From positions 22,175 through 86,174 of the forward strand of contig JAGVJJ010000040.1 in NCBI GenBank assembly GCA_020051175.1: a stretch of DNA of 64,000 nucleotides. The letters are read 5' to 3'. Under the pieces are notes generated by a model that saw only the letters and a program-made list of their open reading frames with translations, did no database searches and was not told the origin of the DNA. Source of the DNA: Bacteroidia bacterium (GTDB taxonomy: Bacteria; Bacteroidota; Bacteroidia; 2-12-FULL-35-15). Shown one piece after another: positions 3,056-50,328 of the stretch; the stretch's first letter is position 1; each line of letters opens with the position of its first letter. Made by a program: the position numbers and the translations under genes.

Positions 3056-4075
3056 TTGAAAAGCTGGCTAAAAAGTACGTTACAATTCTTATTCTTTTTA
3101 GGAATTGGGATTTTATTGGTTTGGCTTGCTTTGCGTGGTCTTACGGAAGATGAGAAGGAAAAGATTTCAAAAGCTTTTGATGAAGCCGATTATTTTTGGA
3201 TCATTTTTCCAACCCTATTGAGTGGATTAAGTCATTTTCTCAGAGCTGCCCGCTGGAAGCTTCTTATCCAGCCACTTGGCTATAATCCGAAACTGTATAA
3301 TACATTTTTTGCTTTAATGGTGGGATATATGGCAAATCTGGCTATTCCACGCTTAGGAGAAGTTTCCCGGTGCGGAATCCTTACCAAATACGAAAAAATA
3401 CCTTTTGCCGAATCATTTGGAACTGTAATAGCGGAACGTGCTATTGATTTGCTTTGTCTGATACTTATTTTTTTAGGTACACTTGTGTTTGAATTTGAAA
3501 AACTATGGGGGCTTACCAATGAGCGGATATTAAATCCTTTGAACGAAAAGCTGACAGCATTGAGCCAAAACAGTGCGTTTCTGTGGATCGCCTTGATTGT
3601 TCTGTTGTTGATCGCAGGAGGTTTGATTTTTATTTTTAGAAAAGGCAAGGGCACATTTCTAAAAAAAATAAAAGAGCTTGCATTAGGTTTTTGGGGTGGG
3701 TTGAAATCGGTAAAAAACATTAAACGCCCCTATTTATTTGTGCTTCATACAGTGCTTATCTGGTTTTTATATATCTATGTATTATACCTCTCATTCAGCT
3801 GTTTTGAGGAACTGTCTGTATTAGGCTTTGGTGCAGCACTTGCAGCCATGTTATTCGGAAGTCTTGGAATTATCTTTGTACCCGGTGGTACCGGTGCTTA
3901 TCAGGTTTTGGTAACTCAAACACTTAATGTTGGCTATAAAGCATCATTCCCTTTTGCTGTTGCCTTTTCCTGGCTTATCTGGTCGGCACAGTTCATCTTT
4001 TTATTATTGGTTGGTTTAATTTCACTGATTTTGTTGCCTATCCTCAACAAAGAAGCTGTAGCCAAACAGGAATAG
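3056..4075 (+). CDS. lysylphosphatidylglycerol-synthase-TM-domain (UPF0104, flippase-like) membrane protein
   Basis: 339 aa, polytopic. The LRAARWKLL...LGEVSRCGILTKY pattern matches LPG_synthase_TM. Bacteroidota commonly pair this gene with panD. TTG start taken from the track, so the exact start is uncertain. Confidence 0.65.
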   Translation: MKSWLKSTLQFLFFLGIGILLVWLALRGLTEDEKEKISKAFDEADYFWIIFPTLLSGLSHFLRAARWKLLIQPLGYNPKLYNTFFALMVGYMANLAIPRLGEVSRCGILTKYEKIPFAESFGTVIAERAIDLLCLILIFLGTLVFEFEKLWGLTNERILNPLNEKLTALSQNSAFLWIALIVLLLIAGGLIFIFRKGKGTFLKKIKELALGFWGGLKSVKNIKRPYLFVLHTVLIWFLYIYVLYLSFSCFEELSVLGFGAALAAMLFGSLGIIFVPGGTGAYQVLVTQTLNVGYKASFPFAVAFSWLIWSAQFIFLLLVGLISLILLPILNKEAVAKQE

Positions 4076-15584: not shown

Positions 15585-17483
15585 TTAATTAATTACTATT
15601 TTATTCAGTTTGAGAAGCGAATTTTTATCCTTTACTGATAGTATGTAAACTCCTGCAGCGAGATTGTATGTTGGTACCTGGTATTCCTGTGACTCAATTT
15701 TTTGTTCCGACCACACGCGCGCTCCGGTAATGGAAATCAGCTCAGCCGAATAAGGAAATTGTGTTGCTTTTATAATAATGGGGTTGCCTGATTTAACAGG
15801 GTTAGGATAAACGGAAATGCTGTTTCCCCCGGTTGCTGCCGCAATACCTGTGCTAAGTGTAGCATCGTGTGCACCAATATCAGCGATGCTTCCGTCATAG
15901 ATTGCATTGCTGAAAAAATCACGTGATCCTCTGCTGATACCGAACAGGCTTGCAATATCAAGTCCTGCGTCTGTTGCCGGTGAGCCTGTTGAGAGTTTAT
16001 ATGCGTTCAGCTGCTCTGTTGGATTCGGGAAAATAATAATTCCGTTTCCTGCACCGTTGAATGCTGGATTTGCTGCAATACCTGTGGCTGTTGAGCCAAC
16101 CTGTTCGTTACCCGTTGCTGTTCGCCAGTCAGCTAAATTGGTGTATGTTGGCCCCTGATAATATATTTTAAAATCGGTTCCTGAGCTCCAGTAAAGGTTT
16201 CCGGCAAAGTAAGCATCGTAGCCGGCAGGAACATCAACAAGCGCAACTCCTCCGGTAGTTTGAAAAATATTGTTGTAAACTTCTGTCCCGGCAATACCTT
16301 TGTGCCAGTCTGTTATTGTGAAGGCCCCAATGGCATTGTTAAGTGATGATGGGGTAATGTAAACCGTATTGTTATAAATTTTTGCTCCGTTCATTACCGT
16401 ATTTATTCCCTTAAACAGTGTGATGCCGCCTCCATTCGTACGGCCATCGTTTTCACTTATATTAAAACGGATAATGTTGTTTGACCAGGGGCGCGCGTTA
16501 TCATATTGCCCAAGCAGGTAACCCGCCCCGTCATTGTCATGAGAATAGTTGTACTGCATTGTTGAATTGGTCATTCCGCCATCAAAATCAAAACCAAGGC
16601 CATCACAGCCCGTACCGCTTTTATTCAGATAACTTTCACAATGCTGTATAGTTAGATCATTGCAATCCCATGCCCAGATACCCCCCGGACCTCCGCAGTG
16701 CGTATTGTCAGCGCCTGTGTGATGTGCAACACATCTTTCAATAAGGCCGTTGTTTACTTGTCCCATAATAATTCCGCTGCCCTTGTGTGTATCGGGGTCA
16801 GAAAAGCCCGGTATGTTGTCGGCTTCTGTATTTTTTATTGTTATGTTTTCATGTGCCCATCCAACATGTGTTTGAGATGTATAACCACTTGTGGTAATCC
16901 CGTTGGTTCGTATATGATGAACATGAGTGCTGTCAATCACAACATTTTTAAATCCTGTGTTTCCATTGTTGGAGCTGATAACAATCCCGTTTTTTCCATA
17001 CCCATAAACTTCAACATTGCGGATATTTACGTTGTTGAACTTCTTATCTCCAGGCGCATCGGCATAGAACAGAATTCCGTTACCGGTATTGCTGTTCATT
17101 CCCGAGCCGGAGAACACCAGGTTGGAAATAACAATGCCTTGTGTATTGTACGCGTATAAACCATAAGCAGCACCGGAGTTAATAATTGCTCTGCCTGTTC
17201 CATAGGATGAAATGGTTGTTGTATTTAGCGGATCGTTTGCATCCGAAGGGCTTAAATAAACACTTCCGTTAAATATTTGTCCGCCCTCAAATAAAATGAT
17301 TGTTCCTGGTGACAAATCGAGGCTATTTAATTTAGAAATTGTTTGCCATGCTTCACTCGCGGACGTGCCAGAAGCATTGTCGTTGCCATTCGGACTTAAA
17401 TAATACGTTTCGGCATAAATAGAGCCCGAAACTAAAAGTATTAGGCAGAATACGACTTTTTTATATATCGATTGAAATAACAT
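15585..17483 (-). CDS. right-handed parallel beta-helix (pectate-lyase-fold) protein with a T9SS C-terminal sorting domain
   Basis: Signal peptide. Repetitive NxxG/ISxN beta-helix rungs. C-terminal ISVYPNPVKSGNPIII...GVYILSVKD matches the T9SS type A domain. Confidence 0.75.
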   Translation of the reverse strand: MLFQSIYKKVVFCLILLVSGSIYAETYYLSPNGNDNASGTSASEAWQTISKLNSLDLSPGTIILFEGGQIFNGSVYLSPSDANDPLNTTTISSYGTGRAIINSGAAYGLYAYNTQGIVISNLVFSGSGMNSNTGNGILFYADAPGDKKFNNVNIRNVEVYGYGKNGIVISSNNGNTGFKNVVIDSTHVHHIRTNGITTSGYTSQTHVGWAHENITIKNTEADNIPGFSDPDTHKGSGIIMGQVNNGLIERCVAHHTGADNTHCGGPGGIWAWDCNDLTIQHCESYLNKSGTGCDGLGFDFDGGMTNSTMQYNYSHDNDGAGYLLGQYDNARPWSNNIIRFNISENDGRTNGGGITLFKGINTVMNGAKIYNNTVYITPSSLNNAIGAFTITDWHKGIAGTEVYNNIFQTTGGVALVDVPAGYDAYFAGNLYWSSGTDFKIYYQGPTYTNLADWRTATGNEQVGSTATGIAANPAFNGAGNGIIIFPNPTEQLNAYKLSTGSPATDAGLDIASLFGISRGSRDFFSNAIYDGSIADIGAHDATLSTGIAAATGGNSISVYPNPVKSGNPIIIKATQFPYSAELISITGARVWSEQKIESQEYQVPTYNLAAGVYILSVKDKNSLLKLNKIVIN

Positions 17484-17801
17484 TCGGGAATGCGTTAAGG
17501 ATGAATACTAAAGATCGTGAAAATAGTCTGGCTATACAAATTACACAACCGGCTATTTATTCTTACTTATCAACGAATTAATGAACGTTTTTTATTTGGG
17601 AAGGTTAGGTTTTTAACAGAATTTGGCACAGTGTTGTTATCGTGTATATGAGAAAGTCGAGGGAGTTTAAGGGAAGAAAAAGCGAATACGTTAATCTGGG
17701 GGCGGTTTGCGCTTGCCAGCTTTAGAACAATCGATCGAAATAATAAAAAAAATATTTTTTCAATCAGTTTAATTAATACTTTTGTAACCGTTAAAATTAA
17801 T

Positions 17802-17875
17802 GGGGAATTAGCTCATTTGGCTAGAGCGCTTGCCTGGCAGGCAAGAGGTGACCGGTTCGAATCCGGTATTCTCCA
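17802..17875 (+). tRNA. tRNA-Ala (anticodon GGC)
   Basis: Manual fold. Acceptor GGGGAAT/ATTCTCC with the G3:U70 alanine identity pair. D-arm GCTC/GAGC. Anticodon stem CTTGC/GCAAG with loop CTGGCAG. T-arm ACCGG-TTCGAAT-CCGGT. Discriminator A. CCA is not encoded. Confidence 0.85.
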
Positions 17876-17908
17876 CAAATTAATTTCGTTGTTAATCTAA
17901 TCAGATTA

Positions 17909-18154
17909 ATGAGTTTCTGTGTATACATACTTTATTCTGTTTCAAAAGATAAATATTATATTGGGCATACTGAAAATTTGGACCGAAGGCTTGAAGAGCA
18001 TTGCTCAAGAAAAAATTTAGGATCAACTGACTGGCAGGTTCAGTATAAGGAAAACTATGATACCCGGGCTAAAGCAATGAAACGGGAGCGGGAAATTAAG
18101 AGAAAAAAAAGTCGTTCATATATAAAATGGTTATTAGAGCGTCCCGCTGTCTAG
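17909..18154 (+). CDS. GIY-YIG nuclease family protein (small, tRNA-associated)
   Basis: 81 aa. VYILYSVSKDKYYIGHTENLDRRLEEH contains the GIY...YIG...R...E core. Lys/Arg-rich C-terminus. The stop codon lies inside the duplicated tRNA segment. Confidence 0.8.
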   Translation: MSFCVYILYSVSKDKYYIGHTENLDRRLEEHCSRKNLGSTDWQVQYKENYDTRAKAMKREREIKRKKSRSYIKWLLERPAV

Positions 18155-18190
18155 CGGGAAGGTGACCGGTTCGAATCCGGTATTCTCCAC
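18136..18190 (+). other. partial duplicate of the tRNA-Ala 3' two-thirds (D-stem 3' strand through acceptor end) with a divergent anticodon arm
   Basis: AGAGCG...AGGTGACCGGTTCGAATCCGGTATTCTCCAC is identical to the tRNA at 17802-17875 except for the anticodon arm. That arm reads TCCCG-CTGTCTAG-CGGGA, an 8-nt loop. There is no 5' half. Confidence 0.6.
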
Positions 18191-18317
18191 TCCTCCTTTA
18201 GTTTTAGTGTAATTTACGGCAATTGCCGGCATAATTTATCCATATTTGATTGCAATTAGATAGTTCGCTATATACCTTGCTTCCATTCATATTTGTTGTT
18301 TAGAATTAAAACATATT

Positions 18318-18325
18318 TATATTTG
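18318..18325 (+). promoter_or_regulatory. candidate Bacteroidota -7 promoter element (TAtaTTTG)
   Basis: TATATTTG fits the TAnnTTTG consensus. It lies 15 nt upstream of the kinase start codon at 18340. Confidence 0.35.
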
Positions 18326-18339
18326 GTATAAAGTATCCC

Positions 18340-20148
18340 ATGAAAAAAGTAATTGCTTTATCATTTCTAATTTTTGTACTTCTTTGTTCTGCATGGGCAC
18401 AAAAGCCTGAAATTGACTCGCTTATAAGGATTATAAACAGCGGTGTGACAGATAGTGCAAAAACCAAGCTGCTCACAGATTTAAGCTGGGAATACATTAC
18501 TATTGGTGATTATAAAAACGCTGCAGAGAAAACAAACGAAGCCATTGCACTGGCAGACAGGATTGGGTATAAGAAAGGACTGGCGCAGTCTTTCAACATG
18601 AAAGGCATCCTCTACTGGTTTCAGGGCGACTATCCCAATGCCCTTGATTATCAGTATAAAGCATTAAAAATAAGCGAAGAAATCGGAGATAAACCTCGTA
18701 TTGCCGGCTCTCTTAACAATATCGGAAACATTTTTCATGAACAGGGCGACCTTCAAAAAGCACTGGAAGATCAGCTGAAGGCATTAAAAATATACGAGGA
18801 AATTGATGCTAAGTACGAAATAGCCAATTTATACAACAACATTGGTGTTATATACCGTAAGCAGAACAATTACCCCACCGCGCTTGAATATCATACCAAG
18901 GCTTTAACAATAAGGGAGGATTTGAAGGATATGCCAGCTGTTGCAGGATCATTAAACAATGTGGGGGTGCTGCACTACGAGCAGGGAAATTATGCCGAAG
19001 CTGCCGTTCACTTTGGCAAAGCCCTGCTTATTTTCCAGGACCTGGGAGATAAAAAAAACATAACCAACCTTTTTATTAATATCGGCAATAACCTCTTTAA
19101 GCAGAAGAAATACCAGGAAGCCCTTGTAAATCTTGAGAAGAGCCTGGTACAGGCACAGGAAATCGCTTACCTCGAAGGAATAAAAGAAGCCGAAAAATCA
19201 TTGAGCGATGCCTATCTTGCAATGAATGACAATGGAAAAGCCCTGGTGCATTATAAAAACTTCGTAGCTACCCGCGATTCAATATTCAATGAAACAAAGA
19301 GCAGGCAGATTGCTGAAATGCGAACAAAATATGAAGTAAACCAGAAGGAAAAAGAAATTGCCCTCCTTACAAACGAAAAAAAGCTGAAAGAAATCCAGTT
19401 ATATGCAATTGTAATTGGGCTTTTGTTAATCGCCATTATCGTTTTTGTGCTGTATAACCGTTATCATTTAAAACAAAGGCTTGTTGCCGAAAAGCAAAAG
19501 ATAATCATTGAAAAGCAATTGATTGAAATAGAACAAAGAGCATTGCTTTTGCAAATGAATCCGCATTTTATTTTCAACTCCCTGTCATCTATTGGTGGTC
19601 TTATATATGAAAACAAGCCTCCTGTTGCGGTAAAGTATTTAACCATGTTTTCCAGGCTTATGCGGCTTATTTTGGAATATTCCCTGGAACCGGTCATTCC
19701 GCTGTCTAAAGAAATAGAGTTGTTGAAGTGTTATGTGGAGCTGGAACAATTCAGGTTTGAAGACAAGTTCGATTTTAAGTTAACAGTTGACCCTAAAACA
19801 CCGCTGGAAACTGCCATACCTCCTATGCTTATTCAGCCCCACCTCGAGAATGCAGTTTTGCACGGACTTACAAACAAGGAGGGGAAAGGCACTCTGGAGC
19901 TGAAAATATCCTGCACCGATAAGTCGCTCATTATTGAGGTGAAAGATGATGGCATTGGCAGGGGAAAAGCAAAAGAGTTTTCTAAAAGCAGCACCACCCA
20001 TAAGTCAATGGCAACCAGTATAACGCAGAAAAGGCTTGAGCTTATCAATCAAAGCAATAAGCATTCGATACAGCTGGAGGTAGAAGATTTAAAAAAAGCT
20101 GACGGTGAGGCTGCCGGAACACTGGTTAGGATAATTATTTCGATCTAA
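18340..20148 (+). CDS. TPR-repeat sensor histidine kinase, LytS/YehU-type
   Basis: Signal peptide. About 7 TPR repeats. One TM segment. The NPHFIFNSLSSI His_kinase (PF06580) signature. HATPase domain. Confidence 0.85.
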   Translation: MKKVIALSFLIFVLLCSAWAQKPEIDSLIRIINSGVTDSAKTKLLTDLSWEYITIGDYKNAAEKTNEAIALADRIGYKKGLAQSFNMKGILYWFQGDYPNALDYQYKALKISEEIGDKPRIAGSLNNIGNIFHEQGDLQKALEDQLKALKIYEEIDAKYEIANLYNNIGVIYRKQNNYPTALEYHTKALTIREDLKDMPAVAGSLNNVGVLHYEQGNYAEAAVHFGKALLIFQDLGDKKNITNLFINIGNNLFKQKKYQEALVNLEKSLVQAQEIAYLEGIKEAEKSLSDAYLAMNDNGKALVHYKNFVATRDSIFNETKSRQIAEMRTKYEVNQKEKEIALLTNEKKLKEIQLYAIVIGLLLIAIIVFVLYNRYHLKQRLVAEKQKIIIEKQLIEIEQRALLLQMNPHFIFNSLSSIGGLIYENKPPVAVKYLTMFSRLMRLILEYSLEPVIPLSKEIELLKCYVELEQFRFEDKFDFKLTVDPKTPLETAIPPMLIQPHLENAVLHGLTNKEGKGTLELKISCTDKSLIIEVKDDGIGRGKAKEFSKSSTTHKSMATSITQKRLELINQSNKHSIQLEVEDLKKADGEAAGTLVRIIISI

Positions 20149-27295: not shown

Positions 27296-28237
27296 ATGTC
27301 TAAAATCACCATTATTACTCCGTGTTATTATAACGAGAAAAATATCCCTGTTACTTTTCCCGTGCTTTTGGAGAATGAAAGAAATTTCCCCGCGGGTACT
27401 GAGTTTGAATATATTTTTATTGATGATGGCTCTAAAGATGGAACATTTGACCAGCTGAGAATAATTCAAGCTGCCCACCCTTCAAAAGTAAAAGTATTAA
27501 AGTTATCTAGAAATTTTGGCTCGAACAATGCAAGTTTTGCGGGCATGTGTCATGCAACAGGTGATTGCTGTGTAATTTTAGCTGCCGATTTACAGGATCC
27601 TCCGGAATTGATCCCTGAATTGTTCAAACATTGGAAGAATGGATATAAGCTGGTGCTTGCGCAAAAAGCAAGCCGGGAAGATACTTTGCTTACGAAACTG
27701 TTTTCTGGTACTTATCACACCTTAATTCGTAAAACCGCTTTGAAAAATTCACCTAAAGGGGGGTTTGACTTATGGCTCTTTGATAAAACATTAAAGGAAG
27801 AGGTTATCAGGATGAACGAAAAGAATTTTTTTCTTCCTTATATGTTTATTTGGATGGGATTCGAATACGTGAGTATTCCATATACAAGGCGCAAACGCGA
27901 AATCGGAAAGTCGGGCTGGACAATGTCGAAGAAAATTAAATCGTTCATTGATACTTTTGTCGCTTTTACATATTTACCTCTGCGTATTATAAGTGTTGCA
28001 GGAATTATTCTCGGGCTACTCTCAATAGTATACGCCATAATAATTATTATAGATAAATTTATTCGTGGAATAAACGTTGAAGGCTGGACATCTTTAATGA
28101 TAGTTTTACTGTTTGTATCGTCCTTCATTATGACTTCGTTGGGAATTATTGGGGAATATTTATACCGCACATTAGATGCATCAAGGAATCGCCCTAACTT
28201 TATTATAGACAAAAAAATTGATGAAACGAACAATTGA
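27296..28237 (+). CDS. GT2 polyprenyl-phosphate glycosyltransferase (ArnC/GtrB/DPM1-like)
   Basis: IITPCYNE...IFIDDGSKDGT...ADLQDPPE are GT-A DXD-type motifs. Two C-terminal TM helices, as in ArnC/GtrB. Confidence 0.85.
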   Translation: MSKITIITPCYYNEKNIPVTFPVLLENERNFPAGTEFEYIFIDDGSKDGTFDQLRIIQAAHPSKVKVLKLSRNFGSNNASFAGMCHATGDCCVILAADLQDPPELIPELFKHWKNGYKLVLAQKASREDTLLTKLFSGTYHTLIRKTALKNSPKGGFDLWLFDKTLKEEVIRMNEKNFFLPYMFIWMGFEYVSIPYTRRKREIGKSGWTMSKKIKSFIDTFVAFTYLPLRIISVAGIILGLLSIVYAIIIIIDKFIRGINVEGWTSLMIVLLFVSSFIMTSLGIIGEYLYRTLDASRNRPNFIIDKKIDETNN

Positions 28238-29747
28238 GCGTTCGGAAAAATATATCAGCCCCATTTCCTTTATGCTTATACATAAACAAAAAATTGAAAA
28301 AATTGAAAACCGGATTTTAAGTGTTTTATTATACGGAGTTTTACTGGTTTATTTATATCAATTTATGTTGGTTGCCGGCAAGTATAAAACATTCACGACC
28401 GATGAAAAGTTTTATTACATTGAAGCCAAGGCAATTTCAGCGAATAACATATACCAGACACCTGCCAGTCTGGATGGTAATACATCGTTCATAGGCGGCT
28501 TTGGTTTTCATGGGCTGAGTTATGCGTTGAAAGACGGCTGGCTGGCTAAGCTTTTTTTTTGTTCAGATGATCCTCCTCTTTTGTGGAACAATGTTTTGAC
28601 CTGCCTGCTAACATTGGCAATAGTTTTTTTATTCAAATCTTTTAGTTTGAATACTCGAATAAAAATTGCATTGCTAATTGCAACCCATTATGTATTGTTT
28701 TACTATACACTTTCGTACATGCAGGAAACGATTCACTACCTTTTTGCAGTAATAGCATTGTGGAATTTATACCTGCTTTATACAAATCAGAACGGAGATA
28801 ACAGGAAATATTTATACTCCTACCTGTTACTGGTTATAATTGCCATAACATTTCGATATGGTTGGTTTATTTGGGGCTTGGGGCTACTGCCATTGGCGAA
28901 GAATTATATCAGCTTTTTTAAATGGTGCGGTTTAGCTATTGCTTTAGCACTATTTGGTATTTTTGTCAATCGCTACATTGCATCACCTTATCCTTACGGT
29001 CACGTTGCCGATAAGATAACGGATATGGAAAATTTTTCATTGCTGAGGGCAGTAGAAATTGCCGTTGATAATTTTTGCAACACTATACACATGTTTATTG
29101 TGCCTGGCAAAAAAATTGACACAACTGTTATGCGTTACCTGTTTTTGGTTTTATTATTTATTAATACATGGTATGCAATAATAAAACGCAACCGTTTTAT
29201 TATTGCATGTGCATTAGTTGCCTGGGGCTATTTTTTAGCAACAATGACTTTTTATGTGGCGTTCTGGGGATACGATGAGAGATCAATGGCTGTACTTAAC
29301 CCTTTGCTGGCTTTTTCATTGGTCGGAACTAGCAACAAGTGGATATTTTATCCGGTTGTTTTAGTTCAATTGTTGCTTTTTCCTGGAATTGTAAAGGAAA
29401 CAGAAGAACGTAATCTGGTATCGATAAATGCAAATGCGCCAAACCCAGTATACCTTGCTGTACAAAATGCCCATTCAAAAATCAGCAACTTAATTACCGA
29501 TGATACTGCAGTTGTGGTTCAAATCAATATTAATTTGGTAAAGCATGGGTCCCTCGATTACTTTAATGAATTTCCACTTGTAAATATCAAAGGACACCCC
29601 ATACATTACAGGGTTTACAGGAACGGAAACGATTTAAGAAAAATCCATTTTCCAACGTATTTTTTGAACCCGCCACCCGAAAGGTTGCCACCCAACTGTA
29701 GATTAATTTATTCCGACTCTTGGATGAATCTATATCGTACCTTTTAA
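28218..29747 (+). CDS. polytopic membrane protein, putative GT-C fold glycosyltransferase (ArnT/PMT-like)
   Basis: 509 aa, more than 10 predicted TM segments. FTTDEKFYYIEAKAIS in the first extracytoplasmic loop resembles the ArnT/PMT DE-x-RY-x-EIA motif. Overlaps the GT2 gene by 20 nt, suggesting translational coupling. Confidence 0.4.
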   Translation: MMKRTIERSEKYISPISFMLIHKQKIEKIENRILSVLLYGVLLVYLYQFMLVAGKYKTFTTDEKFYYIEAKAISANNIYQTPASLDGNTSFIGGFGFHGLSYALKDGWLAKLFFCSDDPPLLWNNVLTCLLTLAIVFLFKSFSLNTRIKIALLIATHYVLFYYTLSYMQETIHYLFAVIALWNLYLLYTNQNGDNRKYLYSYLLLVIIAITFRYGWFIWGLGLLPLAKNYISFFKWCGLAIALALFGIFVNRYIASPYPYGHVADKITDMENFSLLRAVEIAVDNFCNTIHMFIVPGKKIDTTVMRYLFLVLLFINTWYAIIKRNRFIIACALVAWGYFLATMTFYVAFWGYDERSMAVLNPLLAFSLVGTSNKWIFYPVVLVQLLLFPGIVKETEERNLVSINANAPNPVYLAVQNAHSKISNLITDDTAVVVQININLVKHGSLDYFNEFPLVNIKGHPIHYRVYRNGNDLRKIHFPTYFLNPPPERLPPNCRLIYSDSWMNLYRTF

Positions 29748-29942
29748 AGCAAATAAAAATAGCTTTTCATATAGGTGATTCTACATTTTGCAGCCTTTAA
29801 ATTATATTGAAGTAGATTTCACGGTTATGTTGTTTAAACCAAAGTCAAAAGTACTCTATCTAATCTGTTTTATATATTAAAACGGTTTCTCATCCGCATC
29901 ATCCCTCTTCAAACATTCACAAATCGCGCCCTGATTATTCTG

Positions 29943-29960
29943 TCCCGATAGCTATCGGGA
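29943..29960. promoter_or_regulatory. 18-bp perfect palindrome TCCCGATAGCTATCGGGA upstream of the RidA gene (candidate operator)
   Basis: Perfect dyad symmetry, about 150 nt upstream of the start at 30112. No T-run follows, so it is unlikely to be a terminator. Confidence 0.3.
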
Positions 29961-30111
29961 TTATTTCAGAATCTGTGCGTTGAATCGCGGTTGTTTTTAA
30001 GTTGTTGTTGGTCAGCGACTTAGTTTGTTGTTAGATATTAATGCTACAATCCCCAAATTGCTTTTCTCCCCCATTTTCGCTATCTTTGCGCTCCTTTTAA
30101 AACCATAGAAA

Positions 30112-49635: not shown

Positions 49636-50328
49636 ATGAAACTATACATAGTACCAACACCCATAGGTAACCTCGAAGATATAACGCTTCGGGCGATAAG
49701 AATATTGAAGGAGGTGGACCTCATTTTAGCAGAGGATACCCGTAAATCGGGTATCCTCTTAAAGCACCTGGGTATCAACAAAAAAATGTTTTCACACCAT
49801 CAGCACAATGAGCATAAAACGGCCACCATGATTGCTGAGCGTATTGCTGTTGGTGAGAGTATAGCGTTGATAACGGATGCAGGTACACCCGCAATTTCCG
49901 ATCCCGGTTTTTTTCTCGTGCGGGAATGTATCAAATTAGGTGTTGAGGTGGAGTGCTTGCCCGGGCCGACCGCATTTGTGCCGGCACTGGTCAATTCCGG
50001 TCTGCCGAATGATACCTTTTGTTTTGAAGGTTTTTTGCCACAGAAAAAAGGCCGGCAGACAAAAATAAAATCATTGGTATCAGAAGAAAGAACAATGATT
50101 TTTTATGAATCGCCCTACAGGCTTGTTAAGGCGCTGGAAGAGTTTGCTGAACATTTTGGGGCCGACAGGAAAGTTTCTGTTTCCAGGGAGTTGAGCAAAA
50201 TGTTCGAAGAAACCAAGAGAGGCACTTTGATGGGGGTGCTGAATTATTTTAAGGAAAAAACCGTAAAGGGGGAGATTGTAATTGTGCTTGAGGGAAATAA
50301 AACAGAGAGAAATGTAACAAATGACTAA
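49636..50328 (+). CDS. rsmI: 16S rRNA (cytidine1402-2'-O)-methyltransferase
   Basis: MKLYIVPTPIGNLEDITLRAIRILKEVDLILAEDTR is the canonical RsmI N-terminus. Confidence 0.9.
   Translation: MKLYIVPTPIGNLEDITLRAIRILKEVDLILAEDTRKSGILLKHLGINKKMFSHHQHNEHKTATMIAERIAVGESIALITDAGTPAISDPGFFLVRECIKLGVEVECLPGPTAFVPALVNSGLPNDTFCFEGFLPQKKGRQTKIKSLVSEERTMIFYESPYRLVKALEEFAEHFGADRKVSVSRELSKMFEETKRGTLMGVLNYFKEKTVKGEIVIVLEGNKTERNVTND

Follow-up and report, generated by a model that had tools for sequence, protein, structure and literature searches.

A small GIY-YIG nuclease gene, a hairpin and a disabled tRNA copy form a recurrent tRNA-linked unit that may be a selfish element of bacterial chromosomes

We analyzed a 64,000-nucleotide stretch of contig JAGVJJ010000040.1 from a Bacteroidia bacterium (assembly GCA_020051175.1), here called the window, in which a tRNA-Ala(GGC) gene is followed by an 81-residue open reading frame (ORF) of the GIY-YIG nuclease family and then by a partial second copy of the same tRNA. 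The window probably, if by a modest margin of confidence, contains a single unit, about 0.3 kb long, of a selfish mini-element that is linked to tRNA genes, widespread on bacterial chromosomes and driven by recombination. Such a unit has three parts: a gene for an SLX1/UPF0213-type GIY-YIG protein of 80–90 residues, a disabled copy of the neighboring tRNA, and a conserved hairpin of the form TCCCG...CGGGA. The 3' end of the ORF runs into the disabled tRNA copy, in which the hairpin takes the place of one stem-loop, here the whole anticodon arm. The features of the window locus are as follows.

17738–17801, plus strand: native leader and promoter region of the tRNA gene; leader and tRNA together are 86% identical to those of the relative L083
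17802–17875, plus strand: intact tRNA-Ala(GGC) with a G3:U70 pair, found by ARAGORN and by Rfam RF00005 (64.3 bits); the same tRNA as in L083
17877–17908, plus strand: AT-rich 32-nt spacer between tRNA and ORF, read from the sequence
17909–18154, plus strand: GIY-YIG nuclease ORF of 81 amino acids, UPF0213/SLX1-like (Pfam PF01541, E 2.6e-13)
18128–18141, plus strand: remnant of the D-loop and D-stem 3' strand, TGGTTATT-AGAGCG, coding for the C-terminal residues of the ORF; AGAGCG corresponds to tRNA positions 21–26
18142–18159, plus strand: hairpin with stem TCCCGCT/AGCGGGA and loop GTCT in place of the tRNA anticodon arm (tRNA positions 27–43), holding the ORF stop codon; assigned from its fold and found family-wide
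18160–18190, plus strand: copy of the variable loop, T arm, 3' acceptor strand, discriminator base and one further nucleotide (31/31 identity)

The tRNA-Ala(GGC) gene is the sole tRNA gene in the window (17802–17876 according to ARAGORN, 17802–17875 according to Rfam), and the ORF starts 32–33 nt downstream of it. Two pieces of this tRNA recur beyond the body of the ORF. The motif AGAGCG, comprising the D-stem 3' strand and G26, is found at 17823–17828 in the tRNA and again at 18136–18141 in the copy, and the 31-mer AGGTGACCGGTTCGAATCCGGTATTCTCCAC occurs exactly twice, at 17846–17876 and 18160–18190, where shuffled sequences lead to an expectation of zero. Between the two tRNA-derived pieces sits TCCCGCTGTCTAGCGGGA (18142–18159), which contains the ORF stop codon TAG at 18152–18154. 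The partial copy lacks both the 5' acceptor strand and the 5' D-stem strand, and the position that the acceptor strand would occupy in the second copy (18128–18190) is taken by coding sequence. Tested as a functional tRNA, the second copy receives no call from ARAGORN, reaches 15.7 bits against the Rfam cut-off of 29 bits and has non-canonical acceptor pairs. The initial annotation had described this arrangement, with its canonical tRNA, its exact repeats, the stop codon inside the tRNA-like copy and the missing 5' strands, and our analysis agrees with it on each of these points. The ORF list contains no recombinase ORF between the repeats of the window unit. A terminator scan of positions 17400–18500 finds no intrinsic terminator; in many relatives the spacer between tRNA and ORF is the intrinsic terminator of the tRNA.

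The same annotation had read the segment TCCCG-CTGTCTAG-CGGGA as an anticodon arm with an 8-nt loop of the frameshift-suppressor kind, and this part does not hold. The segment pairs for a further 2 bp (C-G and T-A), so that it forms a 7-bp/4-nt hairpin and not an anticodon-type loop of 8 nt: the minimum-energy fold has the 7-bp stem TCCCGCT/AGCGGGA and the 4-nt loop GTCT. It belongs to a family-wide hairpin whose inner stem and loop vary.

To place the window in a wider context we used 80 genomic loci that encode relatives of the ORF (44–63% identity, found with an 11-sequence alignment), which together with the window make 81 loci. Their hosts are mostly Bacteroidota and also include Ignavibacteriota, Cloacimonadota, Nitrospirota, Marinimicrobia and the candidate phyla radiation (CPR). 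A tRNA gene on the same strand ends less than 400 nt upstream of the ORF in 58/81 loci, and 10 of the 23 loci without an upstream tRNA start too near a contig end to tell. Ten anticodons are represented at the 58 loci: Ala(GGC) is the most frequent (28), followed by Asp (8), Pro and Met (5 each), Val(TAC) (4), Asn (3), Val(GAC) (2), and Arg(ACG), Arg(TCT) and Ala(CGC) (1 each). Right after the ORF stop codon, most loci carry a repeat of the 3' portion of their own tRNA, and this often includes the intrinsic terminator of the tRNA, with 30–106 nt of exact identity. The common plan is therefore the 3' end of the ORF, a D-arm-like sequence, the TCCCG...CGGGA hairpin, the variable loop, the T arm, the 3' acceptor strand and often a terminator. 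The C-terminus of ORF homologs is often ...SSVG or ...SSAG, a translation of the tRNA D arm (AGC TCA GTT GGT TAG); these relatives keep the whole D arm, and the TAG of the D-loop is the ORF stop codon. The general picture is one of tandem tRNA copies of which exactly one is intact, the rest being truncated and having a stem-loop swapped for the hairpin, with GIY-YIG ORFs filling the spacers between the copies and reading into the next copy. In two CPR loci (L066, 3231–3302, and L074, 3233–3305) the ORF overlaps the 5' two-thirds of an intact tRNA-Met, its stop codon TAA lies in the anticodon loop (CTCATAA), and a hairpin-bearing 5' unit is found upstream of the ORF. In a neighbor-joining tree the ORFs group by tRNA isotype and by the position of the hairpin, apart from a few switches; for instance, one ORF linked to Pro falls among ORFs linked to Ala, and an Asp clade lies between Ala clades.

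The hairpin is the most distinctive part of the layout. It stands at the end of the ORF in 61/81 loci, and close variants, among them CTCCG/CGGAG and TTCCG/CGGAA, are found in several further loci. The pattern TCCCG-N4-14-CGGGA has 149 matches in 415 kb of loci, compared to about 1 expected by chance. By mapping the hairpin flanks onto the local intact tRNA we could place the segment that is replaced. In the dominant type the hairpin replaces exactly gene positions 28–44, i.e. the whole anticodon arm, with the flanks at positions 27 and 45; this swap is seen with Ala(GGC), Ala(CGC), Met, Pro, Val and Arg(TCT) and at one Asp locus. In other lineages the hairpin is located in the anticodon loop (35/36–41) or the T loop (58–62), in the Asp clade in the T stem and loop (51–58), and in the Asn clade on the 5' side of the anticodon arm (25–34). 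Among 129 distinct hairpins the modal stem is 7 bp and the modal loop 4 nt, with loops ranging from 0 to 26 nt. Stem pairs 6 and 7 covary (A-T, C-G, T-A and G-C), and the TCCCG/CGGGA base is constant while the inner stem and loop vary. This combination of a conserved stem base with a free hairpin length argues for recognition of a folded hairpin, as single-stranded DNA, as a cruciform or as RNA, and not of a duplex site with fixed spacing.

The number of units differs widely between loci. At least two tandem ORF copies are present in 27/81 loci, and many of the copies are truncated; in L010 the two ORF copies agree exactly for 49 codons, after which the second is cut short at the native flank. 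In 26/81 loci there are ORF-less 5'-half hairpin units upstream of the intact tRNA. These contain the tRNA 5' acceptor strand, the D arm, the hairpin, a bit of the variable loop and T arm, and a spacer, and they can form arrays directly upstream of the tRNA, of 3–7 copies of 79–92 nt with 95–99% identity. In L001 (2497–2891) there are five units of 79 nt, each consisting of the 5' acceptor strand, D arm, hairpin, AGGTGAC and a 27-nt spacer; L018 (2451–2904) has 5.2 ORF-less units of 88 nt, L049 (2313–2928) 7.3 units of 84 nt with 99% identity, and L010 (2621–2894) three units of 92 nt. The spacers of the 5' units share GTTCTT(T)A(A)A...TAA across unrelated loci and isotypes (L001, L010, L018 and L084) and do not correspond to the native tRNA leader. 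In L068 one ORF is also found within an upstream unit.

Each partial copy resembles the tRNA beside which it lies. Compared to their own tRNA, the partial copies are 92% identical over 29 nt, and 17/28 are fully identical; compared to tRNAs of the same isotype from other loci, they are only 73% identical. This difference indicates that the copies stem from recent duplication or are subject to continuing gene conversion. Turnover is also apparent between the close relatives L001 and L005, which have an identical tRNA and terminator and ORFs that are about 90% identical, and which differ in the number of 5' units (5 vs 1) and by an extra decayed ORF unit. In L005 (~3270–3300) the hairpin CCCCGAGGCCGCGGGG replaces GACTC in the T loop of a partial copy, and in L001 (~3270–3285) the T loop is normal, a recent gain or loss of the hairpin.

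Orthologs of the window locus itself were traced via the flanking TPR/His_kinase gene. The relative L083 (86% amino acid identity) has an identical tRNA-Ala(GGC) with its own terminator, and neither the ORF nor the copy: this is the empty site that the initial annotation had proposed to look for in close relatives. In L084 (85%) the tRNA is accompanied by one 5' hairpin unit and by an ORF with 73% nucleotide identity to the window ORF; of the 3' copy, only a decayed trace is left. The site is thus polymorphic among relatives for presence and absence of the ORF. In a third relative, L081 (87%), the contig ends, at its position 1, exactly at the 3' end of the tRNA. None of the relatives shows two intact tandem tRNA-Ala genes with an invariant ORF, the arrangement that would have marked the locus as a simple decayed tandem duplicate. 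In L081, L083 and L084 the tRNA is divergent from the TPR/His_kinase gene, and in the window the block of leader, tRNA, ORF and copy (~17738–18295) is inverted. Synteny is lost at the more distant orthologs of the kinase gene (P0113, P0118, P0120 and L085), which have no tRNA beside the gene, so they do not polarize gain against loss.

The protein is a bona fide member of the GIY-YIG family, as had been anticipated: PF01541 matches residues 3–69 with 50.5 bits against a cut-off of 22.6 (E 2.6e-13). The residues Y6, Y17, G19, R27, H31 and E60, which make up the catalytic set, are invariant in an alignment of 33 homologs. The AlphaFold model (pLDDT 87) has the GIY-YIG fold, with strands at 3–10, 15–21 and 42–50 and helices at 24–33, 53–65 and 69–77. 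Profile searches against the PDB yield the UPF0213 structures 1zg2 (E 5.5e-13) and 1ywl (1.4e-10) and SLX1 (1e-4 to 4e-6), and the Foldseek matches ranked 1–10 are UPF0213/SLX1 proteins (for SLX1, TMq about 0.6 and rmsd about 2 Å), I-TevI being far weaker (E 0.6). Seg-type membership is not supported, since PF19835 (SegE_GIY-YIG) scores 13.8 bits against a cut-off of 25 (E 0.069), and the TIGR01453 profile scores 23.7 against a cut-off of 56. Judged by these profiles and the model, the ORF product is of the UPF0213/SLX1-like type of predicted structure-specific nucleases and not of the SegB or I-TevI type. Its 81 residues comprise the catalytic domain only, with no C-terminal DNA-binding region. 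In searches for defense systems, PADLOC gave only weak partial matches to PDC-S14 (E ~1e-4 over ~35 residues), and in searches for phage proteins, PHROGs gave only weak partial GIY-YIG matches. Relatives of the ORF are almost absent from 2.9 million viral contigs. The family is large, with 4,873 cluster representatives (50% identity, E <= 1e-10). The protein P0043, checked for multiple copies, is found on 23 contigs that all represent one locus of one species. Four proteins of 166–214 residues (P0222, P0223, P0224 and P0232) have two GIY-YIG stretches each, and may be tandem units that are read through or have been mis-called as one gene.

Both unit types, with and without the ORF, can be drawn on one circular plan, which would run from the hairpin through the variable loop, T arm and 3' acceptor strand (partial or full) to either a terminator plus ORF or a short spacer, and then through the 5' acceptor strand, where present, to the D arm. 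A unit with this plan would have tRNA homology on both flanks of the hairpin. Entry and multiplication could then take place by homologous recombination with the resident tRNA, either through single-crossover integration of an excised circle or through unequal exchange. If the crossover fell on the right side of the hairpin, the order tRNA, ORF, D-like piece, hairpin and 3' copy would result, which is the structure in the window. A crossover to the left would produce a 5' half, the hairpin and, further on, the intact tRNA, as in the mostly ORF-less upstream arrays. Only products that keep one intact tRNA would survive; reciprocal placements would destroy the sole intact tRNA, and none is seen. 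Recombination between the direct repeats would delete the unit and restore a clean tRNA, leaving an empty site like that of L083. By analogy with the phage nuclease SegB, the GIY-YIG protein would probably stimulate such recombination through cuts in structured DNA, in or close to the hairpin or the stem-loops of the tRNA.

A further-reaching proposal, which we put forward tentatively and consider somewhat less probable than a selfish mini-element as such, is that these loci represent a new class of bacterial mobile DNA. Its units of about 0.3 kb would encode only an SLX1-like GIY-YIG protein and would carry a hairpin-swapped tRNA mimic recognized by that nuclease; they would spread and amplify by nuclease-stimulated homologous recombination, with the universally conserved tRNA sequence serving as homology arms that they bring along, and the ORF-less 5' units would be mobilized in trans. 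Known already are selfish GIY-YIG genes that exploit tRNA genes and tRNA-linked insertions with partial tRNA repeats. In the literature that we searched we found the link between phage SegB and tRNA genes, and did not find the bacterial architecture of an 80-residue ORF with a hairpin swap, which is not proof of novelty.

Several observations weigh against a selfish mini-element. The empty site in L083 is the only one and could reflect loss instead of a unit never gained. The ORFs of the window and L084 are 73% identical in nucleotides and the flanks 68–73%, so that the divergence of the ORF is about that of its surroundings, which fits long vertical residence at the locus. Besides isotype, ORF clades also correlate with the taxonomy of the hosts, and vertical inheritance may therefore account for much of the distribution; the tree, built on ~80 residues, is weakly resolved. 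Every short stretch of the empty allele (the tRNA; the tRNA 3' end with its trailer) is still present in the occupied one, and the intact tRNA of the window is the empty-site tRNA without an immunity mutation, only the partial copies having a stem-loop replaced; both points make classical homing with self-immunity unlikely. The earlier suggestion of a tiny homing or integrating GIY-YIG element that targets tRNA genes thus stands in the sense of a small element tied to tRNAs, given the 80 loci, the ten anticodons, the local matching and the empty site, and is doubtful in the sense of classical homing. An exact-junction scan of metagenomes for the empty allele gave 0 matches, as did a control junction common to both alleles, so the lineage is absent from that metagenome collection. 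The 81-residue protein has no DNA-binding domain that could give site specificity, and a selfish mini-element does not by itself account for such specificity, for the precise substitution of a stem-loop, or for the origin of the conserved hairpin and of the spacer in the 5' units. No transposition or homing event was directly seen.

Some of these points would be expected if the ORF were a resident, non-mobile host repair nuclease beside a highly transcribed tRNA, with the copies and arrays produced by passive duplication, gene conversion and decay at a recombination-prone site. The matched divergence of ORF and flanks and the taxonomic ordering of the clades both fit this explanation, as do the near absence of relatives from viral contigs and the fact that the characterized members of the UPF0213/SLX1 cluster are cellular nucleases. 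We nevertheless regard it as unlikely, since a resident gene would not account for the precise replacement of one tRNA stem-loop by the same hairpin across phyla and isotypes that are unrelated, for an ORF that in every case runs into the tRNA-like copy that follows, for the frequency of truncated and decayed ORF copies, or for the absence of the gene from a close relative with an identical tRNA. Two or three tandem copies accompanied by pseudogenes would also be unexpected for a housekeeping gene. Less probable still is a device acting at the RNA level, in which the tRNA, the ORF and the tRNA-like 3' module would form one transcript, with the hairpin and T arm as a processing, stability or autoregulatory element of the nuclease mRNA, a tRNA-like 3' UTR for whose sake the DNA repeats would be kept. 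In its favor, the ORF shares the strand of the tRNA, follows the tRNA or its terminator directly and has no promoter of its own, the pairing in the hairpin is kept by covariation, and the stop codon lies in or beside the hairpin. Yet no unit contains a complete cloverleaf: the 5' acceptor strand is missing from the 3' units, and the T arm and 3' acceptor strand are missing from the 5' units. With acceptor strands incomplete in all units, there is no acceptor helix for RNase P, RNase Z or the CCA-adding enzyme. Furthermore, the fold of the window segment is no better than that of shuffled sequences (z = -1.17), the ORF-less 5' arrays have no mRNA to regulate, and the position of the hairpin differs among lineages. 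No known RNA family covers the hairpin units, Rfam matching only the intact tRNAs in six array loci.

Repeats of a tRNA 3' end suggest a more familiar origin. tRNA 3' ends are standard integration sites, and integration duplicates the 3' part of the tRNA. The 31-nt repeat could on this basis be attL/attR of a tyrosine-recombinase element that integrated at the tRNA-Ala 3' end and has since been reduced by decay to about 300 bp, an idea close to the attL/attR-like duplication of the initial annotation. One locus, L086, does have such an island next to a GIY-YIG unit. Its positions 68–1800 hold a tyrosine-integrase gene and then a contiguous tRNA-Asp 3' fragment, from the anticodon loop on and with no hairpin; this is followed by a terminator and a GIY-YIG unit with a hairpin-marked Asp copy. 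An integrase island seems to have inserted into a tRNA that carried a GIY-YIG unit. The true att copy is thus a contiguous 3' piece without a hairpin, whereas the repeat in the window is interrupted by the conserved hairpin and extends leftward into D-arm homology. No integrase is present in the window unit or in the 80 loci, and the unit is about 0.3 kb everywhere and often tandem. We give the decayed island very little probability: the att footprint is ruled out by the missing recombinase, the hairpin-split repeat and the contrast with L086. What remains of the att comparison is the repeat of the tRNA 3' part itself; as a description it is too narrow for a non-contiguous repeat without an integrase and for a family that includes 5'-half and tandem units. 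It is even harder to see the second copy as a functional unusual tRNA that is expressed with an expanded anticodon loop, for example as a frameshift suppressor. Its T arm and 3' acceptor strand are intact, a 5-bp stem occupies the position of the anticodon arm, and ARAGORN calls the analogous copies in L020 and L055 'tRNA-???' with 4-base anticodons. For the window copy ARAGORN and Rfam gave no such support, as described above, and the 5' acceptor and 5' D-stem strands are missing, the stem extends to 7 bp with a 4-nt loop, and the loops vary freely in length and sequence among relatives (0–26 nt). The absent acceptor stem, the 7-bp/4-nt fold and this loop variation rule out a frameshift-suppressor tRNA with an 8-nt loop.

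Among known systems, a close counterpart of a selfish mini-element on tRNA genes is SegB of phages T4 and T6. SegB has about 220 residues, with a C-terminal DNA-binding region. The 81-residue protein of the window is the smaller of the two, is chromosomally encoded and falls in the UPF0213/SLX1 cluster. The likeness lies in a free-standing GIY-YIG homing endonuclease gene among tRNA genes of many isotypes (PMC2330249; PMC13096335) and in tandem repeats of nuclease gene and tRNA with truncated nuclease copies. SegB is a phage protein that recognizes a 27-bp site centered on the tRNA T-arm motif (PMC2330249). According to PMC13096335, SegB cuts inside tRNA genes and drives tandem amplification of segB and tRNA; this amplification needs nuclease activity and UvsX/UvsY, yields C-terminally truncated segB copies and collapses without selection. 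In the parts of these two papers that we covered, there is no mention of hairpin-swapped partial tRNAs or of ORF-less 5' arrays.

In sequence and fold the best matches are the UPF0213 proteins BH0048 and EF2693 and the SLX1 domain, which have the catalytic Tyr/Tyr/Arg/His/Glu set in common with the window ORF. To our knowledge, the UPF0213 genes studied so far are single-copy, cellular and without linkage to tRNA. SLX1 needs its partner SLX4 and has a RING domain, and the window ORF differs in having neither a partner nor an extra domain. Titles of structure entries state that SLX1 cuts branched and stem-loop DNA; by analogy, a nuclease of this kind could act on the hairpin. Integrase islands at tRNA genes resemble the window unit in that a direct repeat of the tRNA 3' portion accompanies an intact tRNA and the insert lies immediately 3' of it. 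They differ from a unit of ~0.3 kb that has no integrase, a hairpin-interrupted repeat reaching into the D arm, and tandem and 5'-half arrays. The hairpin itself recalls REP/RAYT systems, the ends of IS200/IS605 elements and integron attC sites, in which a short hairpin with a conserved stem base and a free loop is likewise repeated. Such hairpin repeat systems use HUH/Y1 or tyrosine recombinases, and the enzyme here is a GIY-YIG protein. They share with our units a link to one small enzyme gene and, sometimes, terminator-like positions; our hairpin differs in being concentrated in tRNA-derived units and not dispersed. Mitochondrial repetitive hairpin elements (PMC2800124), small palindromes that invade RNA genes, are a further example of repeated short hairpins of this build.

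If the window unit is indeed a selfish mini-element, a very common and as yet uncharacterized set of small genes annotated as 'GIY-YIG nuclease family protein' would become interpretable, as selfish DNA that resides at tRNA genes and leaves them intact. The SegB principle would then extend from T-even phages to the chromosomes of bacteria from several phyla, with a different and minimal catalytic scaffold. Many odd 'tRNA-???' and pseudo-tRNA calls, as well as contig breaks beside tRNA genes in metagenome-assembled genomes, would find an explanation. With one 80-residue protein, one 18-nt hairpin and one tRNA, the unit would also be a small natural model of the way in which loci are reshaped by structure-specific nucleases and very short homologies. 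Should the units represent a new class of mobile DNA, this would provide a function for the enigmatic expansions of UPF0213 in Bacteroidota.

Within the window the hairpin pattern has 3 matches in a pattern search, compared to a chance expectation of ~0.15 per 64 kb. Besides the hairpin of the unit, there is one solitary match.

29941–29961, plus strand: solitary hairpin GTCCCGATAGCTATCGGGA, followed by TTATTT; terminator-like and possibly related to the unit hairpin, intergenic, ~200 nt after the ORF at 28218–29747

The sequence GTCCCGATAGCTATCGGGA is the same as that of the ORF-end hairpin of L040 and of hairpins in L031; hairpins of this type are therefore not confined to tRNA units, the one here being placed like a terminator. 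The third match, TCCCGGTTTTTTTCTCGTGCGGGA at 49902–49925, is a loose one with a poor stem and is probably due to chance. Away from the arrays the hairpin is found only about once per 60–100 kb. A TCCCG...CGGGA core followed by a T-run is also seen in tRNA terminators, at L009 2975/3307, L010 3313, L016 154, L035 1001/2873 and L055 2975/3312, and in L009 the terminator is nearly identical to the hairpin swapped for the anticodon arm. The swap hairpin may have been derived from, or exchanged with, terminator hairpins.

Two candidates for decayed tRNA-Ala 5' fragments near the window unit were rejected on comparison with shuffled sequences, an upstream one at 17709–17717 (53/500 shuffles score as high) and a downstream one at 18254–18270 (207/500). 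A tRNA cluster in L079 (2143–3273) contains two GIY-YIG ORFs: tRNA-Gly(GCC) precedes the first, which is 35% identical to the query, and tRNA-Val(GAC) precedes the second, with tRNA-Cys and tRNA-Leu between the two ORFs. Finally, contigs often end at or within a few hundred nucleotides of a tRNA/GIY-YIG unit (many of L016–L078, and L081), which suggests that these repeats break short-read assemblies.

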